A stretch of 64,000 nt of DNA, from NCBI GenBank assembly GCA_963816135.1, contig CAWFJD010000019.1, forward strand, positions 1,397 through 65,396, in the 5' to 3' direction. The notes under the pieces were generated by a model, which was given only the letters and a program-made list of their open reading frames with translations, did not search any database and was not told where the DNA came from. The translations under genes were made by a program, and so were the position numbers. Numbering within the stretch: the first letter of the stretch is position 1; each line of letters starts with the position of its first letter. Positions 4,441-32,763 of this stretch are shown in pieces. Source of the stretch: an uncultured Chloroflexia bacterium. Its GTDB lineage: Bacteria; Chloroflexota; Limnocylindria; Limnocylindrales; CSP1-4.

Positions 4441-5310
4441 CTAGACGAACGCGACCGCCGCATAGCCGACCGTCCGGCCTGGATCGCCGCCCGCGTCGGC
4501 CGAGGTGGCGACACCGAGCAGGATGCCTCGAGCCGCCCCCATCTCGCGCAGCGCCGTCAGGCTGACTCGGACAGGGTCAATGCCGCACAGCCCGCAGACA
4601 AGGCCCGGCCGGTTCTCGGCCAGGACGCTTCCCTCGAGCTCATACAGAGCCTCCGCATCGAGCCTGAGAAGCGGATCCAGCAACTCCGAGTCGGTCGCCT
4701 CGCAGACACGCGAGCGCGGGTAATGCGCCATGTCCGAGCTGGCGACAAGGAGGATCCGCTCGCCCAGCGCCCGGCGCGCGGCAAGGAGGCGGCCGAGCAT
4801 CGCGCCGGCGTGCTCGTGGGATCGCAGCCGCGGACTAACGGCGAGAGGCACGATCTTCGCGTTCGGGCAGAGGCACGAGAGGAGCGGCAGCTGGACTTCG
4901 ATCGAATGCTCGCCCTCGTGAGCGTCGTCGTCTCTGACGAACGGTTCTCCAAGTCCGGCAATGGCCCGGGCGAGGTCGAGGTCGATGGCGACGTCTCCCA
5001 GAGGCGTGGACCAGGAACCGCCACACCAGACCCCAACGCCTGTGGCCCAGGCTTGATGGTCCGTGCCCGCGATCACGATCGTGTCCGGTTGGGCCCGGCC
5101 GGCAATGACCCAGCTCAAAGCGGCGATCGTCCCCGAGTAGACGAGGCCGGCGTGGGGAACCAGGAGACCGAGGACCGCAGAAGCATCCGGATGCTCCCGT
5201 CCCGAAAGCTGGGCATCGGCCGCGAGATCGGATACCAGGGCGCGCAGTCTGCCGGAGTCGGCGGGGTAGAACGTTCCCGCCACCGCGGGCCGCCTCAAAG
5301 AGCCGCTCAT
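4441..5310 (-). CDS. amrB: AmmeMemoRadiSam system protein B (Memo-like)
   Basis: MSGSLRRPAVAGTFYPAD..LLVPHAGLVYSG..IAGTDH..SSDMAHY within ORF 4441..6459. The ATG at 5310 overlaps the amrS stop by 4 nt (ATGA). Confidence 0.9.
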   Translation of the reverse strand: MSGSLRRPAVAGTFYPADSGRLRALVSDLAADAQLSGREHPDASAVLGLLVPHAGLVYSGTIAALSWVIAGRAQPDTIVIAGTDHQAWATGVGVWCGGSWSTPLGDVAIDLDLARAIAGLGEPFVRDDDAHEGEHSIEVQLPLLSCLCPNAKIVPLAVSPRLRSHEHAGAMLGRLLAARRALGERILLVASSDMAHYPRSRVCEATDSELLDPLLRLDAEALYELEGSVLAENRPGLVCGLCGIDPVRVSLTALREMGAARGILLGVATSADAGGDPGRTVGYAAVAFV

Positions 5311-6389
5311 CTGCTGCCTCCCTCCGCGAACTCGGTCACGCCCACTCCGGCCAGCTCGTGCCCGCAATGGCGGCACCGGCCCCCTGCCAGAGCGGGCCCC
5401 GGTGCCGCCGAGAACCCTCGCCGCCGAATCAGCGTCGCGCCACATTCGGCGCAGGTGGTGTCGTCGTCGCGGCCTCCCACGTTCCCCGAGTAGACGTGGC
5501 GCAGCCCCTCGCCCCGGCCGATCTCCACCGCGCACTCGATCGTGGCCAGGGGCGTGGGCGGCAGGTCCTCGAGCTGGTAATTGGGAAAGAAGCGGCTTAC
5601 GTGCCAGGGCGTCTCGGGGCCGAGCTCGGAGACGATCCAGCGGGCCAACGCGGCGATCCGGTCCGGGTCGTCGTTCAGGCCCGGGATGAGCAGCGTGGTG
5701 ACCTCGAGCCAGATGCCCCGAGCTCGCATGCCGACGAGGGTCTCGAGGACCGGGGCCAGCCGCGCTCCGCAGACTCGGCGGTAGAAGGTGTCGTCGAACG
5801 ACTTGAGATCCACGTTCGCGGCATCGATGACCGGTGCCAGAAGGTCGAGCGCTTCGGGCGATTGATAGCCGTTGGTAACGAGAACGTTCGCGATCCCGGC
5901 GGCGCGGGCCAGGCGGGCCGTGTCGAGGACCCACTCCAGGAAGACGGTCGGTTCCGTGTAGGTGTAGGCGACGGAGCGGGCGCCGTGTCTCCGAGCCGCC
6001 GCCACTACCTGGAACGGCGACAGCTCGAATGCCGGCAAGCGGACGCCTTCGCGGGGGGCCTGCGAGATGGCGAAGTTCTGGCAGTGGAGGCAGTGGAAGT
6101 TGCATCCCTGGGCGGCGACAGAGAAGGCCACGCTGCCGGGGTAGAAGTGGAAGAGCGGCTTCTTTTCGATAGGGTCCGCGTTGGCGGCCACGGCCTGGCC
6201 GTGGGTCAGGGTGACAAGCCGGCCGTTGCGGTTCTCCCGGACGTGGCAGATGCCCTCGCGGTCCGGGCGGATGAGGCAGCGATGCGCGCAGGCCACACAT
6301 CGAGTCGCGCCTGCTTCCTCCGCGATTGCCAGAACAGCGGGTCGGGCGTGTAGGGCGGCTGTGTTGGTTCCGAAGACGGTCGAGGGCAT
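5307..6389 (-). CDS. amrS: AmmeMemoRadiSam system radical SAM enzyme
   Basis: CX3CX2C motif (GCNFHCLHCQN), N-terminal Cys cluster CVACAHRC and C-terminal CAECG..CRHCG. Full-length intact ORF. Confidence 0.92.
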   Translation of the reverse strand: MPSTVFGTNTAALHARPAVLAIAEEAGATRCVACAHRCLIRPDREGICHVRENRNGRLVTLTHGQAVAANADPIEKKPLFHFYPGSVAFSVAAQGCNFHCLHCQNFAISQAPREGVRLPAFELSPFQVVAAARRHGARSVAYTYTEPTVFLEWVLDTARLARAAGIANVLVTNGYQSPEALDLLAPVIDAANVDLKSFDDTFYRRVCGARLAPVLETLVGMRARGIWLEVTTLLIPGLNDDPDRIAALARWIVSELGPETPWHVSRFFPNYQLEDLPPTPLATIECAVEIGRGEGLRHVYSGNVGGRDDDTTCAECGATLIRRRGFSAAPGPALAGGRCRHCGHELAGVGVTEFAEGGSR

Positions 6390-6588: not shown

Positions 6589-9500
6589 GTGACAACTGTG
6601 GCGTTCGGGCGCTTCCTGCGGCGATCTCTTCTGCTCGGCACCATCGCTCTGCTGGTCGCGACCACGCAGCCGGCCCATGCGCTCGCCAAATCTCCAGAGC
6701 CGTCTGCCGCCGCCACCACGACGCCAACCGTAACTACGCCCCCGGTCGTAACGCCGTCCCCCGTAGCCTCGGCCACCATGGCGCCGAGGGCGCGCGTGCC
6801 CGGAGCCAAGCCGCAGTCGACCCCCGACCCCATCAAGGCCAAAATCGCGGCAAAAGCCGGTTCCCGCCTGCCCATCCTCGATCACGAGACCACCGTTCCT
6901 GCGCGATTGCCTGCGCGCCTTCGACCGGCCGGGGCGGCCGTCCCATCGTCACCCAACGTTGCCCTGCCGGCCGTGACGACCGGCGGTTGGCCTCAGTTCC
7001 AGTTCGATGCCGCGCACACCGGCTACAACCCTTCGGAGACCGCGATCTCGGCGGCCAACGTTTCCCAGCTGACCGTTGCCTGGCAAGCATCTGCGGCCGG
7101 GATGGGGCCCGTGGTGGCGGACGGACTCGTCTTCACGAGCGCCGGGAGCACACTCAACGCCTACCCCCTCGGCTGCGCCGCCAGCGGTTGGCCGTATTGC
7201 ACTCCACAGTGGACGGCCGACACCGGGAGCAACCCTTCGTCCACCCCGGTAGTCGCGGATGGCGTCGTCTACATCGGTTCTAACAGCGGCAAGTTGTCCG
7301 CGTACGCGGTCGCATGCGGGACCGGCGGCGGATCTTGCAGCCCGCTTTGGACCACTACTCTCGATCTCCCCATCGGTTCGCCGGTGGTGGCGAACGGCGT
7401 CGTGTATGTCACGACTTACGACGGCAGGGTGTACGCATTCCCTGTCGGATGCTCGGGTGCCGGCGGCTCATGCGCTCCCATTTGGACCGCAAACGTCGAC
7501 GGATCGGCCTCGTTGCCGGCCGTGTCAAACGGCGTCGTGTACGTGGGGAGCCGGAACGGCACCCTCTCTTCATTCGCCGTTGGGTGTAGCAGCGGTGGAG
7601 GATCGTGCAGCCCTCTGTGGACCGCGAAGCCCAGTTCGTCGGGCGCCTCCAACCTGTCGGCGCCTGTGGTAGCCGACGGCGTCGTTTACGTGAGCGCCTA
7701 CGACGGCCACCTCTATGCCTACGCCGTCGGCTGCAGCAGCGGGGGCCGTTCGTGCAGTCCGCTCTGGACGGCCACGACCGGAGGACACATCGACTCACCA
7801 CCCGCGGTCGCGAACGGGGTCGTCTACATAGGCGCCGAGGACAACAAGCTGTACGCCTACGCCGCGGGCTGCAACAGTGGCGGCCGCTCGTGCAGTCCGA
7901 TCTGGACGGCTACGACCGGCGGCTGGATATATGCATCGCCGAGCGTCGCCAACGGTGTCGTCTACGCCGGCTCGGACGACGACAAGATCTACGCGTTTGC
8001 CGTAGGTTGCGCAACCGGCGGCGGGAACTGTAATCCGCTATGGACGGTCGCTCTCGACAGCCGGATCGAAACGCCCGTAGCCATCGCCGACGGCACCCTC
8101 GTTGTCTGCGCCGGGAGACTGTACGTTCTGGCGCCGCCGCCCGACCACCTCGTGCTGAGCCCAGCGCGCGCCAACGTGGTCGCCGGCTTCAACCAGTACT
8201 ACTCGGCCGAGGGCTTCGTCGAGGGCACGGATATCGGCATTGTGACGGCACACGCTACGTTCGCCATCGGCGGGGGCGGCTCCTGCACATCGACGTCCTG
8301 GGCCGTCTGCACATCATCCGTGTCCGGCGACCATGTTGTTACCGGCACGTATGGGAGCGCGACAGGGACGGCCATTCTCCACGTCAACGTCGTCCTCTCC
8401 GGCGTCGTTACCGATGGCTCCGCTTTCAAGCCGAACGTCGAAGTCGTTGCCTTCGACCCGGTGGCCGGCAACATCTACGCGGACGTCTTCACCGACGGAA
8501 ACGGTCAGTGGTCGGTAGCCTTGCCTCCCGGTACCTATTCGCTCTACTTCTTCGTCGGCGACAGGAGCCGGGCCAGCGGCTACCTCGGCGCATCCGGCTT
8601 CACCTTTGACCCTGCCCGCGCGGAGGCGATCGTGGTCGCCAATGCCGATCTCTCCAATCTGAATGTCGTCCTGCCTCCGCCGCTGCATATTTCCGGCTCG
8701 GTGAAGGGACCGGGATCGAGCGTCTTGGGTGGTATCAAGGTATTTGCCTATGACGCAAACAGCTTCGAAGAGATGGGCGAAGCGACGACGGCCATGGACG
8801 GCACTTATTCGATGGCCATGGCCCCCGGCGACTACTACGTGCAGTTCGAGGATCCAGGCGACGCCTACGCCCCAGGCTATTGGAGCCAGGTCGGATTCAC
8901 TCAGGACCTCATGCTCGCAGATCCCGTCACCGTCGGTTACATAGATCGAATTGGGGTCGACATCCACATGCCGGTTGGCCTGCGCATCGGCGGAGTCGTA
9001 ACAGACACGGCGTCGAGGCCTTTGGGCGGCATCGAGGCCGACATCTTCAGCGATGCGGGCGGTCTGATCGCCATCGTGACTACGGATGGCACGGGCACCT
9101 ATTCGGCGCTGGTTACCGCCGGCAACTACTACATCGGCTTCATCGACCTCAGCGAGACGTACGCGTCCGGCTACTGGGACGGCAATGGCTTCACGCCCGA
9201 TTTCATGGCCATGGCCGCCGTGACGGTTGCCGGGGATACCGACGGACTGGACGTCCAGTTGCCCGAAGCACTTGGGAAGCCCACGAGTGTCCATGCCACT
9301 CGCGGCGATGCCTCCGCTACGGTGAGCTGGACCGCCCCCACGAGCACCGGCGGCGCGCCGATCACCGGATACACGGTGACGAGCTCGCCCGACGGCCGGA
9401 GTTGCTCCTGGGCCTCCGGGCCCCTGCAGTGCACGGTGTTATCACTGAGGAACGGGGTGGCCTACACCTTCGCCGTCGCGGCCACCAATGTCGGAGGCGA

Positions 9501-10971
9501 CGGTCCGGATTCGGACGCCTCCAACGCCGTGGTACCGGCTGGTGTGCCGGGCAAGCCGACTGGGGTCTCCGCCTGGCCGGGCGTCGCATCGGCGACTGTC
9601 AGCTGGACGGCGCCTGCGAACAATGGCGCCGCGATCACCGCCTACACCGTCTCGAGCGTGCCCGCCAGTTCCGGCTGCTCGACGAGCTCCAGCAACTGCA
9701 CCGTATCGGGCCTGACCAACGGGGTTTCCTATACGTTCCGGGTCAGCGCTACCAATTCGGTCGGCACAGGGCAGCTCAGCGATCCTTCGGTCGCGGTCAC
9801 GCCGGCGCCCGGCGCCGCTTCGACCTTCCACCCGATCGCGCCCGTCCGGGTACTCGACACGAGAAGCAAGAATGGCTGGGCGAACAAGCTCGTCGCGAAC
9901 AAGGCGATCACGTTCAGGGTCACGAATCGGAATGACACGAGTCCGCAGATCCCCGATGGAGCCAGCGCGGTCACAGGCAACGTCACAGTTGTCGGACCCA
10001 CTAACGGCTGGGCCGTCTACCTCGGGCCTGCGCCGATTGACAAGCCGACTACCTCGACGATCAACTTCGTCGCCGGAGCCGTGGCGGGCAACGGCCTGAC
10101 GGTGGCCCTGGGCTCGGCCGGGACTCTGAGCGCTACCTATATCTCGAGCGGTTCCAGCACGACCGACCTCGTCTTCGACGTGACCGGCTACTTCACCCCC
10201 GACACTACGGGGGCTACTTATCACCCGATCGATCCGGTCCGCGAACTCGATACCAGGGCCGGGAACGGCCTGTTGGGCAAGCTGCAAGCCAACCTTCCCT
10301 ACCGGTTCCAGGTCGCGGGCCGCAATGGCGTCCCCGGGAACGCCGTCGCCATCACGGGCAACGTCACCGTCGTCAACCCGACCAGTGGCTGGGCCATCTT
10401 CCTCGGGCCCAACGATTTCGGTGTGGCGCCGAGAACCTCGACGATCAACTTCTCGGCGGGTGTCGTCGCGGGTAACAACGTGACGGTCGTCCTCGGTGCA
10501 ACTGGCGCTCTGGGCGCCACGTACATCTCGTCCGGCGCCAATTCGACGGACCTTGTTTTCGACGTGACCGGTTACTACACGGCGGATCTGAGCGGGGCGA
10601 TGTTCGTCCCGATCAGTCCGGTCCGGATGGCCGATACCAGGTCAAGGCTCGGCATCGCGACGGGCAAGCTGACCGCCGGCGGACCGGCGGCATTCCCGGT
10701 GGCCGGTCTCGCGGGAATACCCGCCCAAGCCGCCAGCGTCACGGGCAACGTCACCGTCGTGAACCAGACTGCCGGCTGGGCCCTGTTCGTCGGTCCGAAT
10801 CCGGTATCCGCGCCGACCACGAGCACGATCAACTTCGCGCCAGGCGAAGTCAAAGGAAACGGCCTGACCGTAGCCCTGGGGTCAGACGGGAAGCTATACA
10901 CCACCTACATCAGTTCAGGCGGCAACAAGGCCGACGTCGTCTTCGACGTCACGGGTTACTTCACGAAGTAG
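6589..10971 (+). CDS. Secreted 1460-aa multidomain protein: Cys-loop PQQ/BamB-like beta-propeller, Ig-like and carboxypeptidase-regulatory-like repeats, 2x fibronectin type III, 3x uncharacterised ~125-aa C-terminal modules
   Basis: Signal peptide ..LLVATTQPAHA/LA. Seven blades with GVVY.. and GC-x6-C-xPxWT (aa ~133-515). GVVTD..TDGNGQWSV..PPGTYSLYF type repeats. Two ATVSWTAP..ITGYTV FN3 units. Three modules beginning (Y/F)(H/V)PIxPVRxxDTR. Intact 4.4-kb ORF. Confidence 0.9.
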   Translation: MTTVAFGRFLRRSLLLGTIALLVATTQPAHALAKSPEPSAAATTTPTVTTPPVVTPSPVASATMAPRARVPGAKPQSTPDPIKAKIAAKAGSRLPILDHETTVPARLPARLRPAGAAVPSSPNVALPAVTTGGWPQFQFDAAHTGYNPSETAISAANVSQLTVAWQASAAGMGPVVADGLVFTSAGSTLNAYPLGCAASGWPYCTPQWTADTGSNPSSTPVVADGVVYIGSNSGKLSAYAVACGTGGGSCSPLWTTTLDLPIGSPVVANGVVYVTTYDGRVYAFPVGCSGAGGSCAPIWTANVDGSASLPAVSNGVVYVGSRNGTLSSFAVGCSSGGGSCSPLWTAKPSSSGASNLSAPVVADGVVYVSAYDGHLYAYAVGCSSGGRSCSPLWTATTGGHIDSPPAVANGVVYIGAEDNKLYAYAAGCNSGGRSCSPIWTATTGGWIYASPSVANGVVYAGSDDDKIYAFAVGCATGGGNCNPLWTVALDSRIETPVAIADGTLVVCAGRLYVLAPPPDHLVLSPARANVVAGFNQYYSAEGFVEGTDIGIVTAHATFAIGGGGSCTSTSWAVCTSSVSGDHVVTGTYGSATGTAILHVNVVLSGVVTDGSAFKPNVEVVAFDPVAGNIYADVFTDGNGQWSVALPPGTYSLYFFVGDRSRASGYLGASGFTFDPARAEAIVVANADLSNLNVVLPPPLHISGSVKGPGSSVLGGIKVFAYDANSFEEMGEATTAMDGTYSMAMAPGDYYVQFEDPGDAYAPGYWSQVGFTQDLMLADPVTVGYIDRIGVDIHMPVGLRIGGVVTDTASRPLGGIEADIFSDAGGLIAIVTTDGTGTYSALVTAGNYYIGFIDLSETYASGYWDGNGFTPDFMAMAAVTVAGDTDGLDVQLPEALGKPTSVHATRGDASATVSWTAPTSTGGAPITGYTVTSSPDGRSCSWASGPLQCTVLSLRNGVAYTFAVAATNVGGDGPDSDASNAVVPAGVPGKPTGVSAWPGVASATVSWTAPANNGAAITAYTVSSVPASSGCSTSSSNCTVSGLTNGVSYTFRVSATNSVGTGQLSDPSVAVTPAPGAASTFHPIAPVRVLDTRSKNGWANKLVANKAITFRVTNRNDTSPQIPDGASAVTGNVTVVGPTNGWAVYLGPAPIDKPTTSTINFVAGAVAGNGLTVALGSAGTLSATYISSGSSTTDLVFDVTGYFTPDTTGATYHPIDPVRELDTRAGNGLLGKLQANLPYRFQVAGRNGVPGNAVAITGNVTVVNPTSGWAIFLGPNDFGVAPRTSTINFSAGVVAGNNVTVVLGATGALGATYISSGANSTDLVFDVTGYYTADLSGAMFVPISPVRMADTRSRLGIATGKLTAGGPAAFPVAGLAGIPAQAASVTGNVTVVNQTAGWALFVGPNPVSAPTTSTINFAPGEVKGNGLTVALGSDGKLYTTYISSGGNKADVVFDVTGYFTK

Positions 10972-11097: not shown

Positions 11098-11736
11098 GTG
11101 AAGCGGGTCGAACCGTCGGATCAGAAGAGCCTGATCGCGATCGCGAAACGGTCGATCGAGGATGCAGTCTGCGGTGATGGACGCGGACGGCGACGGGCGG
11201 CCGCGAATGACGCGGTCTCCGACGAGGCCGCGCTCGTGCTCTCCGCGGCCCTGCTCGAGCCGGCGGGCGCGTTCGTGACCCTCCGCGAGGACGGCGAACT
11301 GCGCGGTTGCATCGGCCTCCTGCGGTTCGACGTGCCTCTCTGGGAGAACGTCCGAGATGCGGCCGCGGGCGCCGCGCTGAACGATCCCCGCTTCCGACCT
11401 GTCGACCGGGGAGAGCTTCGCCGTCTGGATCTGGAGATCTCCGTCCTGGAGCCGCCGGTGGAGATTCGGGATCCGGCGCTCTTCGAGGCCGGCAGACACG
11501 GGATCGTCGTAGAGCGAGGCCTGCGGCGTGGCCTGTTGCTGCCCCAGGTGGCGCCCGAGATGGGTTGGGGAAACCTCGAGATGCTCGACGGTGTCTGCCG
11601 CAAGGCGGGCCTGCCACCGGATTCCTGGCGGGATCGCGCGACGCGCCTCTACGTGTTCGAGGCGACTTGCTTCGGCGAAACGACCGACGAGCAAGCGGAT
11701 GAGCAGTCTGGCGCGCACGCCCCGACGGCCGATTAG
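11098..11736 (+). CDS. amrA: AmmeMemoRadiSam system protein A (AMMECR1 domain)
   Basis: GAFVTLREDGELRGCIG..NDPRFRPV..LEISVL..HGIVVE..GLLLPQV, typical AMMECR1. GTG start. Confidence 0.9.
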   Translation: MKRVEPSDQKSLIAIAKRSIEDAVCGDGRGRRRAAANDAVSDEAALVLSAALLEPAGAFVTLREDGELRGCIGLLRFDVPLWENVRDAAAGAALNDPRFRPVDRGELRRLDLEISVLEPPVEIRDPALFEAGRHGIVVERGLRRGLLLPQVAPEMGWGNLEMLDGVCRKAGLPPDSWRDRATRLYVFEATCFGETTDEQADEQSGAHAPTAD

Positions 11737-15836: not shown

Positions 15837-17510
15837 TTAGCCCACGTCGCGGCGGCGCACGCCGGCGGCGCCGAGTGCCAATCCGCCGAAAGCGATGACC
15901 AGGCAGGCCGCGACGCCCGCCCAATCCCAGATGCCGACCATCGGCAAGCCCAGGTGGGAGGTGAGAGCCAGCTGGTTGAACCAGTCCGGCAGCTTGAGCG
16001 CGGGACCGAGGAAGTCGATGAGGAACGTCGCGATCGCGAACAGGGCCGCGATCTCGGCCGCCAGCGACGTCCGCCACAGACCGCCGACCGCCAGCCCGAC
16101 TCCGGCCACGGCACCGGCCCAGAGCGCCAGGGTGAGCGCTCCGACCGCGGGGGTCAGGACGTCCCCACCCGCCACGACGACGCCCACGGCGATGCCCGCG
16201 GCAGCCAGGGCGGTCATGACCAGGATCGAGCCGAAGATGCCGATGCCGCCCGTAACCGCCCACTTCACTCGAGTCATCGGCGTGGTGATGAGCATCTCGA
16301 GCTGCCGGTTGCGCTCCTCCGAGGCCCATCCGGCCACGAGAGTCGCAGCCCCGAGGCCGGCGATCACGTAGGCCAGGAAGGTGAACATAAGCTGGAGGAA
16401 GCCGCCCGGAGACGTAACGTCGAACCTGGGAAAGGCGGTCTTGAGGAGATTCTGGAAATCGCCCAAACCCTTGAGCTCACTCGAGAACGAGGCACTCGAA
16501 GCGGCAAGAATCCCGGCGAAGATCGCCAGGCCGATGCCCCATGCGAGCCCCAGCGGCAGGCGCTCGCCGAAAGCCCGGCGCGTCGGCCCGCTCGTCCCGA
16601 GCAGCGTCTCCGGCATGGCCGGTACGGGAATGGCGCTGGCCGTGCCCAGGTCGCGGCGCTGGAAGGCTTCGATGCCGATTGCGAACATGACGACGGCGAG
16701 GATGGCGACCGGGATGAGCGTCGGCCAATCCGAGTGGCCGGCGAGGGGGACCTCGTTGTAGGTCCAGTAGAACGGCGTCAGCAGCGCGATGGGCTGTAGC
16801 CCCGGCAGCACGGTCTGGTAGCCGCTGATGACATAGCCCGCGAGCAGGTAGCCGCCGGCGATGCCGGCTGCGCTCGAACGACCCACGAACGGCGCGAGCG
16901 CCCAGGCAACGGAACCGCAGGCGAGGCCGATCAGGCCGAGCCACAGCGCGAAGCCGATCGACTCCGAGACGGCCAGGTGGTCCTGCGGGGTGACCGAGAA
17001 GGCGGCCGAACTGAGAGAGGTGACTATCGCGAGGGCGATCATGATCGCGACCATGCCGGTGACATGGGCCGCGAGCTTCTCGATGGCGAGCCGCCGCTTG
17101 CCGAACGGCGATGCGGCCACGATGTCCAGGCTGCCCTTGCGGGCTTCGGCGGCGAGAGTCCCGGACAGCGCGAGGATCGACCACAGGCCCACGACCACGG
17201 CGAAGAAGGGCCCGTACTTCCAGGAGATGTAGCCGCCGATCCGGTCGATGTTGACCGGATTCCCGCCCATGCCCTTGAGGATCGGGGGCAGGTCCTCGAT
17301 CAGCTTGGCGGCCTGGCCCCTGTCCGGAAGAGCCAGAGGGATGGCGTACCAGCCGTAGACCATCAGGCCCAGAAGCAGGCCTCCGACGATCAGAAAGGCC
17401 AGTCGGGAATCCCGGAGCGTCTTGGCGTAGACGCTGCCAAAGCCGTAGAAGCGGCTCCAGAGAGAGACGTGACCGGGAGCGGCCAGCGGCGCCGCCTGCG
17501 TTGCCATCAC
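15837..17510 (-). CDS. ABC transporter permease (ABC-2 type, fused ~12 TM)
   Basis: 557-aa polytopic ORF whose start overlaps the upstream ATPase stop by 4 nt. Hydrophobic repeats are typical of ABC-2 exporters. Confidence 0.85.
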   Translation of the reverse strand: MMATQAAPLAAPGHVSLWSRFYGFGSVYAKTLRDSRLAFLIVGGLLLGLMVYGWYAIPLALPDRGQAAKLIEDLPPILKGMGGNPVNIDRIGGYISWKYGPFFAVVVGLWSILALSGTLAAEARKGSLDIVAASPFGKRRLAIEKLAAHVTGMVAIMIALAIVTSLSSAAFSVTPQDHLAVSESIGFALWLGLIGLACGSVAWALAPFVGRSSAAGIAGGYLLAGYVISGYQTVLPGLQPIALLTPFYWTYNEVPLAGHSDWPTLIPVAILAVVMFAIGIEAFQRRDLGTASAIPVPAMPETLLGTSGPTRRAFGERLPLGLAWGIGLAIFAGILAASSASFSSELKGLGDFQNLLKTAFPRFDVTSPGGFLQLMFTFLAYVIAGLGAATLVAGWASEERNRQLEMLITTPMTRVKWAVTGGIGIFGSILVMTALAAAGIAVGVVVAGGDVLTPAVGALTLALWAGAVAGVGLAVGGLWRTSLAAEIAALFAIATFLIDFLGPALKLPDWFNQLALTSHLGLPMVGIWDWAGVAACLVIAFGGLALGAAGVRRRDVG

Positions 17511-29164: not shown

Positions 29165-31630
29165 CTACCTCACGAATTGGACGAAATAGCCGGTCATGTC
29201 CAGGACCAGATCGGTGGTGTTGCCCGAGCTCGAAATATAGGTCGCCGAAAGGCTGCCGTTCGATCCCAGTTCCACCGTCAGGCCGTTGCCTTTGACCTCG
29301 CCCGCACTGAAGTTGAGCGTCGAGGTGCCGGGACTCGCCGCCGGCGTGGGACCGATGAAGGCGGCCCACCCCGCGGACTGGTTGACGACCGTCAGGTTGC
29401 CGGTGACGGCCAACGCGTCGGTCGCGAAGCCGCCGAGGGACGCGGCCGCAAACGTTCGAGGCACGCCCGCCGAAAGCTTGCCCGTCAAACCGGTCCCGAC
29501 GCGCGTGTCGAGGAGCCGTGTCGGCGGGACCGGCACGAATACCGCACCCGTCAGGTCAGCCGTGTAGTACCCGGTCACGTCGAGGACGAGATCGGTGGTG
29601 TTGCCCGGCGTGGACATGTACGTGGCCGACAGGCTGCCGTCAGTCGCGAGGCCCACGGTCAAGTTGTTGCCGCTCACCTGATTGGCCGTGAAGTTGACCG
29701 ATGACGTGGCAGGGGTCGCCGACGCCGTGGGGCCAACGAAGACGCCCCAGCCATTGGACGGAGCCACGACTGTCAGGTTTCCGGTGATCGCGACGACGCC
29801 GGCCGGAATGCCGCCCTTGCCACTCACCTGGAAAGTCCGTGGCGTACCGGCGCTCAGTCTGGTCGAGAGACCGGTTGAGGTTCGGGTATCGAGTATTCGT
29901 GTCGGGGCGATCGGGTGATAGGTTGAGCCGGTGTTGTCGGGCGTGAAGTAGCCGGTGACGTCGAAGACGAGATCCGTCGTCTGGCCGGCCGTGGACATGA
30001 AGGTCGCGGACAGGGTTCCGCCGGTCCCAAGCACGACCGTCACTCCGTTGCCGGTCGTCTGTCCCGCCGCGAAGTTGATGGTCGAAGTGGTCGGATTTGC
30101 GACGGCCTGTGGACCCAGGAATACGGCCCACGAATGGCTCGGACTCACGACCGTGACGTTGCCCGTGACGGCGCTGGCGCCGGCCGGCACGCCGCCGCGG
30201 CCGGTCACCTGGAAGGTTCGCGGTGTGTTCGCGACGAGCTTGCCCGACAGGCCGTTGCCCGTTCTCGTGTCGAGGAGTCGCGCGGGAGGCAGGGGATGAT
30301 AAGTCGAGGTGGCCATGCCGACGGAGGTGATGCCCGACATGGTCCCGACCAGGACCTGGTTCTGCCAGAGCGTGGGCGAGACGAAATGGGGCACCGGTCC
30401 GACGGCAATGGAGCCGAGCGTCGCGCCCGTGGACTGGTCGAGGGCGAACAGACGGCCGGTGCTCGTGTTGACACTCCAAACGGCGCCGCCACCGACGACC
30501 GGTGACGATCCCGCGGCGGTGCTGGTCCAGCCCGTCGTCAGGGCGCCGGTTCCGGCGTCGACGGTTACTTCACGGATCGAGCCGGTGCACGGCACGTAGA
30601 TCGTGTTGCCGCTCTGGGCCATCCCGCCAAAGCCCGCGCAAACCGGCGCCGAGGCCACCTGGCCGCCGATCCCACCGAGTGCGCCGGCCTTGAGGACATA
30701 GCCCGTGCCGCTCTTGCCGGAGATGAATACCCAGCCGCCGGGCACCAGGGCAGGGCTGATCGACCCGAGGTCCAGGTCGCTCGCGTTGTCGGCTGCCCAC
30801 GAGGACGGGGCGAATAGGCTCAGCTGCGCCAGGGTGGGCGACAGCTCGATCACCGAGTCGCTGCCGTCGTAGGTCGTGGTCGAGGCGCCGTTGCCGACGG
30901 AGACGTACAGATTGCCGGAGCCGTCGATGACGGGGCCGCCCGTGGCCCAGATGGCGCCCTCGCGAGTGGTCGGGACGCGATACGAGATCGTCGCGCCCGT
31001 GCCTGTGGCGGGAACGCCGATCACTTCGCCGACGTACTGGCCGCAGTCGCCGGCCAGACCGCCGAGGCCGACGTAGACGAAACCGTTCGCCACGGCGAGG
31101 GCCGGCCGCTGCTGATGCGTCTTAGGGTCGTCGCCCGCGAGGTCGATGTTGCGCGACCAGCGGATCGCCCCCGTCGCCGGATCGAGGGCGAAGAGGATGT
31201 GCTGAGGCCCGGTGACCTCCGCGACCGCGAAGATCGAGTCCGTCACGGGGTCGAAGGCCGGCGTGCCCGTGATGCCCAGCGGATCGATGCCCCCGCATGG
31301 CAATGTGGAGAGGGGGACCGGGGTGCCCAGGTTCTTCCGCCATTGGACCGCGCCGTTTGCGGGGTTTATGGCGTAGACGCTATCGCCCTCCGTGGCCGCG
31401 ATCACCGAACCGTTGACGACCAGAGGTTCGGCGTAGACGGCTCCGTCGAGGACCGCCGACCAGCCGGTCGAGAGCGTGCCGTTGACAGTCGGGAAAGCCG
31501 CGTCCAGGCCGGTCCTGCCCGGGTTCTGGTGATACACGGGCCACTCCGCGATTGCCGCTCCGGCGTTCGCACGCGGCGTGGAGACGACCACGGAGCCTAG
31601 GGCAAGGAACCCGGCGATGACGAAAGCCAT
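29165..31630 (-). CDS. Secreted PQQ-like beta-propeller protein with the same 3x ~125-aa C-terminal module cassette as 6589..10971
   Basis: Start at M120 of ORF 29165..31987 (MAFVIAGFLALGSVVVSTPRANA signal). PQQ-type repeats (AVYAEPLVVNGSVI, GAVQWR, GAIRWS). Three modules STYHPLPPARLLDTR.., STYHPIAPTRILDTR.., AVFVPVPPTRLLDTR.. Confidence 0.88.
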   Translation of the reverse strand: MAFVIAGFLALGSVVVSTPRANAGAAIAEWPVYHQNPGRTGLDAAFPTVNGTLSTGWSAVLDGAVYAEPLVVNGSVIAATEGDSVYAINPANGAVQWRKNLGTPVPLSTLPCGGIDPLGITGTPAFDPVTDSIFAVAEVTGPQHILFALDPATGAIRWSRNIDLAGDDPKTHQQRPALAVANGFVYVGLGGLAGDCGQYVGEVIGVPATGTGATISYRVPTTREGAIWATGGPVIDGSGNLYVSVGNGASTTTYDGSDSVIELSPTLAQLSLFAPSSWAADNASDLDLGSISPALVPGGWVFISGKSGTGYVLKAGALGGIGGQVASAPVCAGFGGMAQSGNTIYVPCTGSIREVTVDAGTGALTTGWTSTAAGSSPVVGGGAVWSVNTSTGRLFALDQSTGATLGSIAVGPVPHFVSPTLWQNQVLVGTMSGITSVGMATSTYHPLPPARLLDTRTGNGLSGKLVANTPRTFQVTGRGGVPAGASAVTGNVTVVSPSHSWAVFLGPQAVANPTTSTINFAAGQTTGNGVTVVLGTGGTLSATFMSTAGQTTDLVFDVTGYFTPDNTGSTYHPIAPTRILDTRTSTGLSTRLSAGTPRTFQVSGKGGIPAGVVAITGNLTVVAPSNGWGVFVGPTASATPATSSVNFTANQVSGNNLTVGLATDGSLSATYMSTPGNTTDLVLDVTGYYTADLTGAVFVPVPPTRLLDTRVGTGLTGKLSAGVPRTFAAASLGGFATDALAVTGNLTVVNQSAGWAAFIGPTPAASPGTSTLNFSAGEVKGNGLTVELGSNGSLSATYISSSGNTTDLVLDMTGYFVQFVR

Positions 31631-31821
31631 CGGCCTGGCGAGGGGTGGCCGGTTGCGTGCGGACCTCCCTGATGCAGATAGATAGGGCCACGTCACACCG
31701 TCCTTCCCGTCTTCCCGCGAGGGTCGACCTGCGTCCGGGGGCATGCTACGGGCGCGCTGGAAGACCGCTGCGTTCCGCTGCCCGGGTCCCGGATGGTGGA
31801 CCAGGCGGTCGAAGGCAGGAT

Positions 31822-32763
31822 CTAGCGGATCGCCTGGAGCCTGGCGAGGAGCGCCGCGCCCGATGTCGTGTCGTCGGTTCTGACTCGAGGCGTTTCCAGG
31901 CGCGTGCGCCAGCTCTCGGTTGGGCCGGCGAACGTGGTGACGGCGATCTGGATGCCCGCACACTGGCCCGCCGCGGCGACTACCCACGGCTCGACGCCCG
32001 ACTTGGGGTACGAGAGCGAGACCGGCCGGTGGCCGATGATTCGGGCGAGCGCCGTGGAGGCTCCGTCTATCTCGGCTGCGGCATGGTCGAAGTCGAGGGT
32101 CGTCAACTTGACATGGGTCATCGTGTGGTTGCCGATCTCGTTGCCCGCGGCCTGGAGGGCGAGCAGCTGGCGTTTGGAGAGGAAGTCGCCCACGCCGATC
32201 CGGCTCGTGATCACGAAGAAGGTGGCGTTGTAGCCGTAGTCGCGCATCATCGGGAAGGCATGCGTGTAACCGTCGTTCCAGCCATCGTCGATCGTGATGG
32301 CGAAGGTCCGCGGCGGCACCGGCGCGCCTGATCGCATCGCCCTCGCGAGCTGCTCGAGGGTGATCGTCCGCCAGCCGGCTCCATGGAGCTCGCGAAGTTG
32401 TGCCCGGAAGAGATCCGGGGCCGTGACCATCGACGGCAGGGAATCGCCAGCCTCAGCTGGAGGGACGATGCGGTGATACATCAGGATCGGGACGTGGTAG
32501 GCGACGTCCGGAACGGCCGAAGGAACGGGCGCAGCCGGGGCGACAACCACCGCGGGCGCGAGGATTGCCGGCGTCGCGGCGGCCGCGGCCAACCGGGCGG
32601 TCGGATGCGGCCGGGCCGTCCCGGGAAGCGTCGCCTCTGAATGCGCCACTCCCAGATTCGTGGCCAACCCTGAATGCTGGGTAGTCGTCGCGCCGAGTGT
32701 CGCGGCTGCCAGCGCCAGCGCGCACACGCAGACACCCAGCAACGCGACAGGGCTCCCTCTCAT
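31822..32763 (-). CDS. Polysaccharide deacetylase (NodB homology) family protein, secreted
   Basis: Signal peptide. PILMYHRI, TIDDGWNDGY, GNHTMTH motifs. Confidence 0.88.
   Translation of the reverse strand: MRGSPVALLGVCVCALALAAATLGATTTQHSGLATNLGVAHSEATLPGTARPHPTARLAAAAATPAILAPAVVVAPAAPVPSAVPDVAYHVPILMYHRIVPPAEAGDSLPSMVTAPDLFRAQLRELHGAGWRTITLEQLARAMRSGAPVPPRTFAITIDDGWNDGYTHAFPMMRDYGYNATFFVITSRIGVGDFLSKRQLLALQAAGNEIGNHTMTHVKLTTLDFDHAAAEIDGASTALARIIGHRPVSLSYPKSGVEPWVVAAAGQCAGIQIAVTTFAGPTESWRTRLETPRVRTDDTTSGAALLARLQAIR

Follow-up and report, generated by a model that had tools for sequence, protein, structure and literature searches.

Two large secreted proteins, encoded on opposite strands of a 64,000-nucleotide stretch of contig CAWFJD010000019.1 from an uncultured Chloroflexia bacterium of the Limnocylindrales (hereafter the window), end in the same ~380 residues, for which no Pfam match was found in either protein. 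The question raised by this locus is what this shared terminus is, how widely it is distributed, and what it does for the proteins that carry it. A sequence-only reading had described it as a cassette of three tandem modules, each of ~125 amino acids (aa), and this interpretation proved essentially right. Beyond it, we found that the cassette represents a huge family in two phyla, that its three modules are predicted to form a rigid unit, and that the number of modules per protein is one or a multiple of three. As to its role, we tentatively favor, with somewhat less than even confidence, a single-chain pseudo-trimeric binding unit that anchors exoproteins non-covalently on a polymer of the producer's own envelope.

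Two copies of one triple-module cassette

The two copies form the ends of gene A (6589..10971, + strand), which encodes a secreted multidomain protein of 1460 aa according to the listing of open reading frames (ORFs) and Pfam, and of gene B (29165..31696, − strand). Cassette A (9820..10968, +; 383 aa) and cassette B (29168..30307, −; 380 aa) align from end to end in BLASTP, with 60% identity and 74% positives (E 2e-157), and each is made up of three ~125-aa modules. The start motif (Y/F)(H/V)P.xPxRxxDTR occurs at residues 1080, 1211, and 1339 of protein A and at residues 444, 571, and 698 of protein B; the end motif D(V/M)TGY(F/Y) finishes at residues 1202, 1330, and 1458 and at residues 562, 689, and 816, respectively, its last copy in cassette A lying two residues short of the stop codon. 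In cassette A, the motifs, an alignment of the six modules of the window and a profile built from it delimit module 1 (9826..10194, +; aa 1080-1202), module 2 (10219..10578, +; aa 1211-1330), and module 3 (10603..10968, +; aa 1339-1460). In cassette B, which the profile also recognizes, the motifs and the alignment place module 1 at 29945..30301 (aa 444-562), module 2 at 29564..29920 (aa 571-689), and module 3 at 29168..29539 (aa 698-821), all on the − strand and in the numbering of the 821-aa form of the protein. The alignment of the six modules has 39 invariant columns, the invariant residues including P6, R8, D11, T12, R13, N52, N80, N89, D118, and Y122 of the module, and a search of all six reading frames of the window with the six-module profile gave no matches beyond these six.

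The cassette is far more conserved than the rest of the two proteins, because their N-terminal parts share only blade-level similarity, with a best segment of 32 aa (E 1e-4). The sequence-only reading had taken the two propellers to be of different types; both match PQQ_2 and Beta-prop_ACSF4, so that they do not differ at the level of Pfam. It had also proposed that the modules correspond position by position between the two proteins, and here the evidence is divided. The identity of modules at the same position is 65% (A1-B1), 57% (A2-B2), and 60% (A3-B3), compared with 59-63% between modules within one protein, and module A2 is nearer to B1 (61%) than to B2 (57%); the correspondence is clear in the linkers and in the motifs of module 3 but weak in the module cores. 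In a comparison taking in 98 other three-module proteins, the nearest relative in a different protein had the same position in 87 of 100 cases for module 1, in 80 for module 2, and in 90 for module 3. This supports the inheritance of the cassette as a block, as had been suggested, and so does the contrast between cassettes with 60% identity and N-terminal halves that are barely related. Profiles specific for the first, second, and third position, derived from close relatives, failed to classify the modules of distant proteins with six or nine modules, and the positional identity of modules is therefore a property of the close subfamily only.

Distribution, module number and partner domains

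To place the module in a known family, we searched domain, structure and literature resources. Pfam (E up to 0.1), NCBIfam (E up to 1), and PHROGs yielded nothing meaningful for the modules; sequences of the PDB gave no match to a single-sequence query and only noise with a profile of 35 modules. Pfam searches of 130 further family members and two actinobacterial proteins revealed partner domains in plenty and no model on the modules, and our literature searches returned no description of the domain. Members are named in RefSeq as "hypothetical protein" or after their other domains. Judged by these sequence searches, the module family is unnamed, without a solved structure, very large, and present in two phyla, and the claim that it lies outside any named family stands.

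Several candidate identities were rejected on the way. The NCBIfam model "bluetail" (NF041519) reached at best 19.6 bits, against a curated cutoff of 21 bits, on a 20-residue stretch (TDLVFDVTGYF...); 17 of 73 members match it, every one of them below the cutoff, and NF041519 is not mentioned in the literature that we found. "Crystallin" (PF00525) matched 14 of 73 relatives at ~1e-6. We treated these matches as spurious: the N-termini of alpha-crystallins are unrelated eukaryotic sequences, and the similarity is probably to the PxRLLDTR stretch. The labels "ecotin," "YoaK," and "SecG" given to relatives by JGI look mis-annotated.

Word-indexed searches gave 952, 1,689, and 2,426 matches, metagenomic almost throughout, and the taxon names on the listed matches were without exception Candidatus Limnocylindria, Limnocylindrales, or "Chloroflexi." An exhaustive search with a hidden Markov model of 35 modules against 1.84 billion cluster representatives (clusters at 50% identity) yielded 32,212 matches at E ≤ 1e-3, with 8,802 at E ≤ 1e-30. 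Scanning one genome per species, we found 79 loci, nearly all in Limnocylindria-type metagenome-assembled genomes of peat, fen, palsa, and soil origin, and several loci in the same genome are frequent; multiple module-bearing ORFs are present at 22 of the 79 loci, and there are genomes with several paralogues. Two of these loci come from bins assigned elsewhere, L001 (PKWT01000030.1, a "Micrococcales" bin) and L035 (DATKBC010000068.1, a "Pleomorphomonadaceae" bin), with 51-67% identity to the module of the window; their contigs are fairly short (3.6 and 22 kb), and they are probably binning errors rather than transfers.

A tblastn search of plasmids showed the cassette in Streptomyces (19 records), Curtobacterium, Arthrobacter, Paenarthrobacter, and Aeromicrobium at 27-37% identity, with at least 80% of the three-module query covered in 22 of 27 records, and the same type of search against 50,697 phage genomes gave no match. 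In Streptomyces WP_331720616.1, for example, the cassette occupies residues 950-1320. A core signature is largely common to both phyla: P-x-R-x-x-D-[TS]-[RK] ... N-x-T ... N-[FY] ... N ... D-x-x-G-[YW]-[FY]. Surveyed by lineage and by partner domain, the family thus spans Chloroflexota and Actinomycetota and is joined to very diverse partners.

The number of modules follows a strict pattern. Exactly three full modules are present in 107 of the 120 best matches to the cassette. Among the best 142 representatives of the exhaustive search, 133 have three modules, six have six, one has nine and two have five, and none has four, seven, or eight; of the two with five, one appears truncated and the other probably contains a degraded or missed module. 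The lack of proteins with four, seven, or eight modules is notable, because additional modules would raise both score and rank. Species-representative genomes provided 92 complete ORFs, with three modules in 76, one in 11, two in three and none in two, and these counts are not biased towards three, since the query was a single-module motif. Re-inspection showed that the ORFs scored as having two modules contain the third in partial, split, or cut-off form, and that those scored as having one are mostly genuine single-module proteins, with a cut-off second module in at least one. All four Actinomycetota proteins examined have exactly three. The module number of intact proteins is one or a multiple of three, with no convincing case of two, four, seven, or eight. 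A trimeric working unit, with all three modules supplied by one chain or one each by three chains, would be expected to give such a pattern.

The proteins at both ends of this range may be informative. Single-module proteins (L065 641-4384, L035 2948-5041, L075 2789-4387, and others) carry the module at the extreme C-terminus behind an fn3 or an enzyme domain, and at those loci all are of a "TGNLTVT.QT..GYL" subtype; they may be homotrimerizing ancestors or counterparts of the fused triple. The proteins with six or nine modules (P0241, of 1799 aa, P0242, P0244, P0246, P0247, P0248, and P0258) have them in contiguous runs or in triplets with inserts of 350-400 residues between, a layout that suggests two or three cassettes per chain.

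The position of the cassette is likewise regular. It ends 0-4 residues from the C-terminus in ~110 of the 120 matches and is C-terminal in 129 of the 142 representatives, with a conserved ending GYF(V/T)P directly before the stop codon; the cassettes that are not C-terminal mostly follow straight after the signal peptide, as in a Curtobacterium cutinase, a Paenarthrobacter RHS toxin, P0127, and P0133. A terminal unit of this kind, restricted to a lineage and attached to many unrelated cargo proteins, might be understood as a sorting, secretion or folding domain, that is, a C-terminal export or attachment signal comparable to the C-terminal domain (CTD) of the type IX secretion system, or an intramolecular chaperone removed after export. 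The extreme C-terminal location and the conserved ending would suit such a domain, yet we consider it very improbable. With 380 residues the cassette is far above the size of known sorting signals (a CTD of the type IX kind has ~80-100 aa, is strictly C-terminal, and belongs to organisms with the matching secretion machinery; the hosts here are Chloroflexota and Actinomycetota), it is N-terminal or internal in the four proteins just named, and proteins with six and nine modules exist. In addition, the host phyla are regarded as monoderm, so that no outer-membrane step is needed (PMC10608941).

The N-termini of sampled members are signal peptides. Behind them we found fn3, PKD, and Ig spacers, PQQ and RCC1 propellers, S8 subtilase, SpoIID, GH18, and purple acid phosphatase, as well as GSDH, BNR, flavin adenine dinucleotide (FAD) oxidoreductase, cutinase, LamG, and RHS toxins, a partner set that is very diverse and, by Pfam census, mostly non-glycosidase. 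P0142 has the look of a GH25-type lysozyme from a reading of its sequence. Among the commonest partners in proteins of 650-663 aa is a recurrent N-terminal domain of ~280 aa that has no Pfam model and contains the stretches KVVIVVGA...YSPNATW...YLGHG.GYPNPY...LNHLCYASG (P0131, P0137, P0144, P0146, P0147, P0155, P0160, and P0169).

Predicted structure and proposed role

A single module was modeled by AlphaFold2, from the six-sequence alignment, as an eight-strand all-beta jelly-roll with a predicted local distance difference test (pLDDT) of 83 and a predicted template modeling score (pTM) of 0.76. The whole 383-aa cassette, modeled from a 73-sequence alignment, is also all-beta (pLDDT 95.5, pTM 0.92); both models agree with the earlier expectation of a beta-rich module. 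Because the pTM of 0.92 extends over three domains, the mutual arrangement of the modules is predicted confidently, and the cassette is predicted to be a single rigid body rather than beads on a string. The geometry of this body may be that of a closed, threefold pseudo-trimer.

Comparison of the single-module model with the PDB by Foldseek gave nothing significant (all E ≥ 0.01, template modeling [TM] score ≤ 0.5). The neighbors were generic jelly-rolls: the Bd2133 fiber tip, viral capsid proteins, the carbohydrate-binding module (CBM) CBM35, and the P-domains of subtilase and furin. The best of them was the Bd2133 fiber tip (8ok3; probability 0.98-1.0, TM 0.50, E 0.015), a weak match; CBM35 is of a similar fold class and matches weakly as well (E 0.04-0.12, TM 0.22-0.35), with no CBM match in Pfam. 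For the whole cassette, the matches in the PDB were multi-CBM proteins, neuropilin b1b2, and the triple jelly-roll of STIV A223 (4ind), and no similar three-domain arrangement was found there (TMq ≤ 0.23). In a viral library the best match of the cassette was a protein with a BclA C-terminal domain from Bodo saltans virus, a giant virus, which again is weak (TMq 0.45).

These neighbors bring to mind an adhesin or receptor-binding tip, comparable to phage fibers, Bdellovibrio fibers, or BclA, in which the pseudo-trimer would recognize other cells or surfaces in adhesion or toxin delivery. The trimeric jelly-roll tips of Bd2133 and BclA (C-terminal/TNF-C1q-like) and STIV A223 are the best fold-level neighbors that we have, and they use jelly-rolls as trimers or three to a chain; the N-terminal cassette of the Paenarthrobacter RHS toxin would also be in keeping with a tip. 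The scores are nevertheless too weak for homology, and the neighbors are components of fibers or capsids, not tails of bacterial exoenzymes. As no phage genome in our search encodes the module and phosphatases, proteases, and SpoIID need no receptor on a target cell, we regard a tip as distinctly improbable.

The main rival explanation is a lectin- or CBM-like unit with a target outside the producer: it would bind a polysaccharide or surface in the environment, for instance plant, fungal, or microbial debris of peat and soil, and would enrich the attached enzyme on that substrate instead of on the producer's wall. The fold itself speaks for it, together with the weak Foldseek neighbors CBM35, a porphyran-binding CBM, CBM22 tandems, Vip3/Cry, and neuropilin discoidin domains: jelly-roll CBMs (CBM35, CBM6) and domains IV and V of Vip3 share the general jelly-roll of ~120-130 aa and are appended to secreted enzymes. 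GH18, cutinase, and BNR are among the partners, members come from organisms of peat, fen, and soil, and polar residues (R, D, R, N, N, D, Y) are conserved in the two phyla, as would be expected of a site for a sugar or Ca2+. Most partners, however, do not degrade polysaccharides (proteases, PQQ and RCC1 propellers, phosphatases, oxidoreductases, SpoIID, RHS), and a strict triple unit in terminal position is more typical of wall anchors, whereas CBMs are usually single or variable in number and are not obligatorily triple. The module belongs to no CBM family by sequence, its matches to jelly-roll CBMs fall short of significance, and nothing in the PDB matches the three-domain arrangement. On balance we think a CBM-like role somewhat unlikely.

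The envelope anchor that we favor would work as follows. Three jelly-rolls of ~125 aa would come together in a rigid body, probably with pseudo-threefold symmetry, and so amount to a trimer in a single chain; this non-catalytic body would form one terminus, mostly the C-terminus, of numerous unrelated secreted proteins of Limnocylindria and Actinomycetota. Once exported by the Sec route, the cassette would attach to an envelope polymer with a repeating structure (peptidoglycan or a secondary wall glycopolymer, for example), and this binding would keep the attached propeller, protease, wall hydrolase, or phosphatase at the cell surface. We infer both the binding of a ligand and the envelope as that ligand from an organizational signature: the unit is conserved, non-catalytic, and terminal, and it occurs in threes on a range of unrelated exoproteins within one lineage. 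The sequence-only reading had guessed at a cell-surface or glycan-binding role, and the census of partner domains, the signal peptides, and the terminal location would fit such a role. A need for retention on a wall polymer is plausible, as Chloroflexota are grouped among the monoderm Terrabacteria (PMC10608941).

Anchoring is proposed here by analogy with the triple SLH and triple CWB2 units, the non-covalent anchoring cassettes of Bacillota. SLH motifs are helical and ~55 aa long, in contrast to the ~125-aa all-beta sandwiches described here, which have no match to SLH (PF00395) in Pfam; a likeness may lie in the pTM of the cassette and in its module count, which point to one three-part unit. 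Three tandem SLH repeats make up a pseudo-trimer, which attaches non-covalently to a secondary polymer linked to the wall and so tethers S-layer proteins and exoenzymes (PMC6081394, PMC4973711). In CWB2 of Clostridioides difficile there are three tandem non-identical repeats, all of which are needed and the order of which matters, and 29 paralogues combine them with proteases, wall hydrolases, and adhesins (PMC4973711). The cassette of the window resembles CWB2 in organization only, with three position-specific modules, terminal location, many paralogues, and diverse partners. It differs in having no match to PF04122, the profile with the conserved motif P[ILV][ILV][LV] (in Pfam searches of both window proteins, the 130 relatives and the two actinobacterial proteins), in its all-beta jelly-roll modules, and in its hosts, which are Chloroflexota and Actinomycetota rather than Bacillota; the ligand of CWB2 is PSII, an anionic wall polymer. 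By this analogy it would be a triple-repeat terminal binding or anchoring cassette with a fold unrelated to those of SLH and CWB2. That it is a third "three repeats make one pseudo-trimer" wall anchor after these two, structurally unrelated to them and displaying exoenzymes, propellers, and toxins at the cell surface by way of a wall polymer in both phyla, is a possibility that we put forward with clear reserve. What is new here is the single-chain body of three jelly-rolls, as predicted, and the rule of one or a multiple of three modules.

It should be noted that several points weigh against an envelope anchor. The jelly-roll fold and the weak Foldseek neighbors (CBM35, domains of Vip3/Cry, neuropilin b1b2) are equally typical of CBMs that target a substrate, and the cutinase, GH18, and RHS partners would be just as intelligible if the cassette bound to foreign surfaces. 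Only the pTM and the module count speak for a closed pseudo-trimer and against a rigid rod. Finally, no genes for the biosynthesis of wall polymers flank genes A and B in the window.

The many paralogues with one conserved terminal unit, and single-module proteins that could homotrimerize, would also be compatible with a self-assembly module, whose lateral contacts would build an S-layer-like or sheath lattice bearing different functional heads. Conservation is concentrated in a few polar residues, not in broad surfaces, and no sign of lattice formation was seen, so that we rate self-assembly as the most improbable of the readings considered; it would be largely compatible with anchoring and hard to separate from it.

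Genes A and B, their surroundings and the meaning of the cassette

Protein A begins with MTTVAFGRFLRRSLLLGTIALLVATTQPAHALA, which is signal-peptide-like by reading, and continues in the Pfam assignment with a PQQ-like beta-propeller (PQQ_2/BamB-like) with Cys-pair loops, three CarboxypepD_reg/SdrD_B-like Ig domains, two fn3 domains, and the cassette. The blades with the conserved Cys pair lie at approximately residues 190-500 (~6976-8388, +), where the loop pattern GC...GG.C.P.WT is present in ~7 copies; these pairs may be disulfide-stapled blade loops, and the propeller of protein B does not have the pattern. Protein B consists of a secreted PQQ-like beta-propeller followed by the cassette, as seen from the ORF listing, the PQQ_2 match in Pfam and an inspection of its start sites. 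Its gene can be read from an ATG at 31630, giving 821 aa, or from a GTG at 31696, giving 843 aa, to a stop codon at 29165-29167. The GTG is more likely to be the true start, because a GGAAGGA ribosome-binding site precedes it and the positively charged beginning that it adds completes the signal peptide.

Gene A is flanked by a radical-SAM gene (5307-6389, −) and an AMMECR1 gene (11098-11736, +). The reading frame just downstream of the former ends at 4441 (−), and its product looks Memo-type by reading (MSGSLRRPAVAGTFYPADS...); together the three would make up an AmmeMemoRadiSam trio interrupted by the cassette gene A. Within or adjoining the stretch between the two cassette genes are genes for an HtrA-like protease, a histidine kinase, two luciferase-like monooxygenases, and an amidohydrolase. 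Also on the − strand, at 15837-17510, is a 557-aa ORF with a coding-like third-position GC content (GC3) of 0.88 and no Pfam family at E ≤ 1e-5.

The next gene upstream of gene B encodes a secreted polysaccharide deacetylase (31822-32763, −; Polysacc_deac_1, E 7e-23) with a signal peptide of its own. Both genes are on the same strand, with ~125 nucleotides between the stop codon of the deacetylase gene and the likely GTG start of gene B, and they may be co-transcribed. The deacetylase, a point in favor of anchoring, is the sole wall-related neighbor of the cassette genes, and apart from its place beside gene B the neighborhood in the window holds no operon-level clue. No tRNA genes and no Rfam matches were found in the window, which looks like ordinary chromosome.

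Limnocylindria are abundant and largely uncultured bacteria of soil, peat, and freshwater, and to our knowledge almost nothing is known of how their surface is constructed. The interest of the cassette rests on the size of the family, the clean structure prediction, and testability in cultivable Streptomyces: as Streptomyces and Curtobacterium carry the same cassette, the proposed anchoring is open to experiment in cultivable organisms. The module deserves a family model even without a function, given that its carriers now appear as "hypothetical" or are named for their other domains only. If the cassette is a general anchor of exoproteins, it would point to a wall polymer as its ligand, it would provide a name and a testable function for a family comprising over 30,000 clusters of proteins (50% identity), and the surface proteome of Limnocylindria would become definable directly from sequence.

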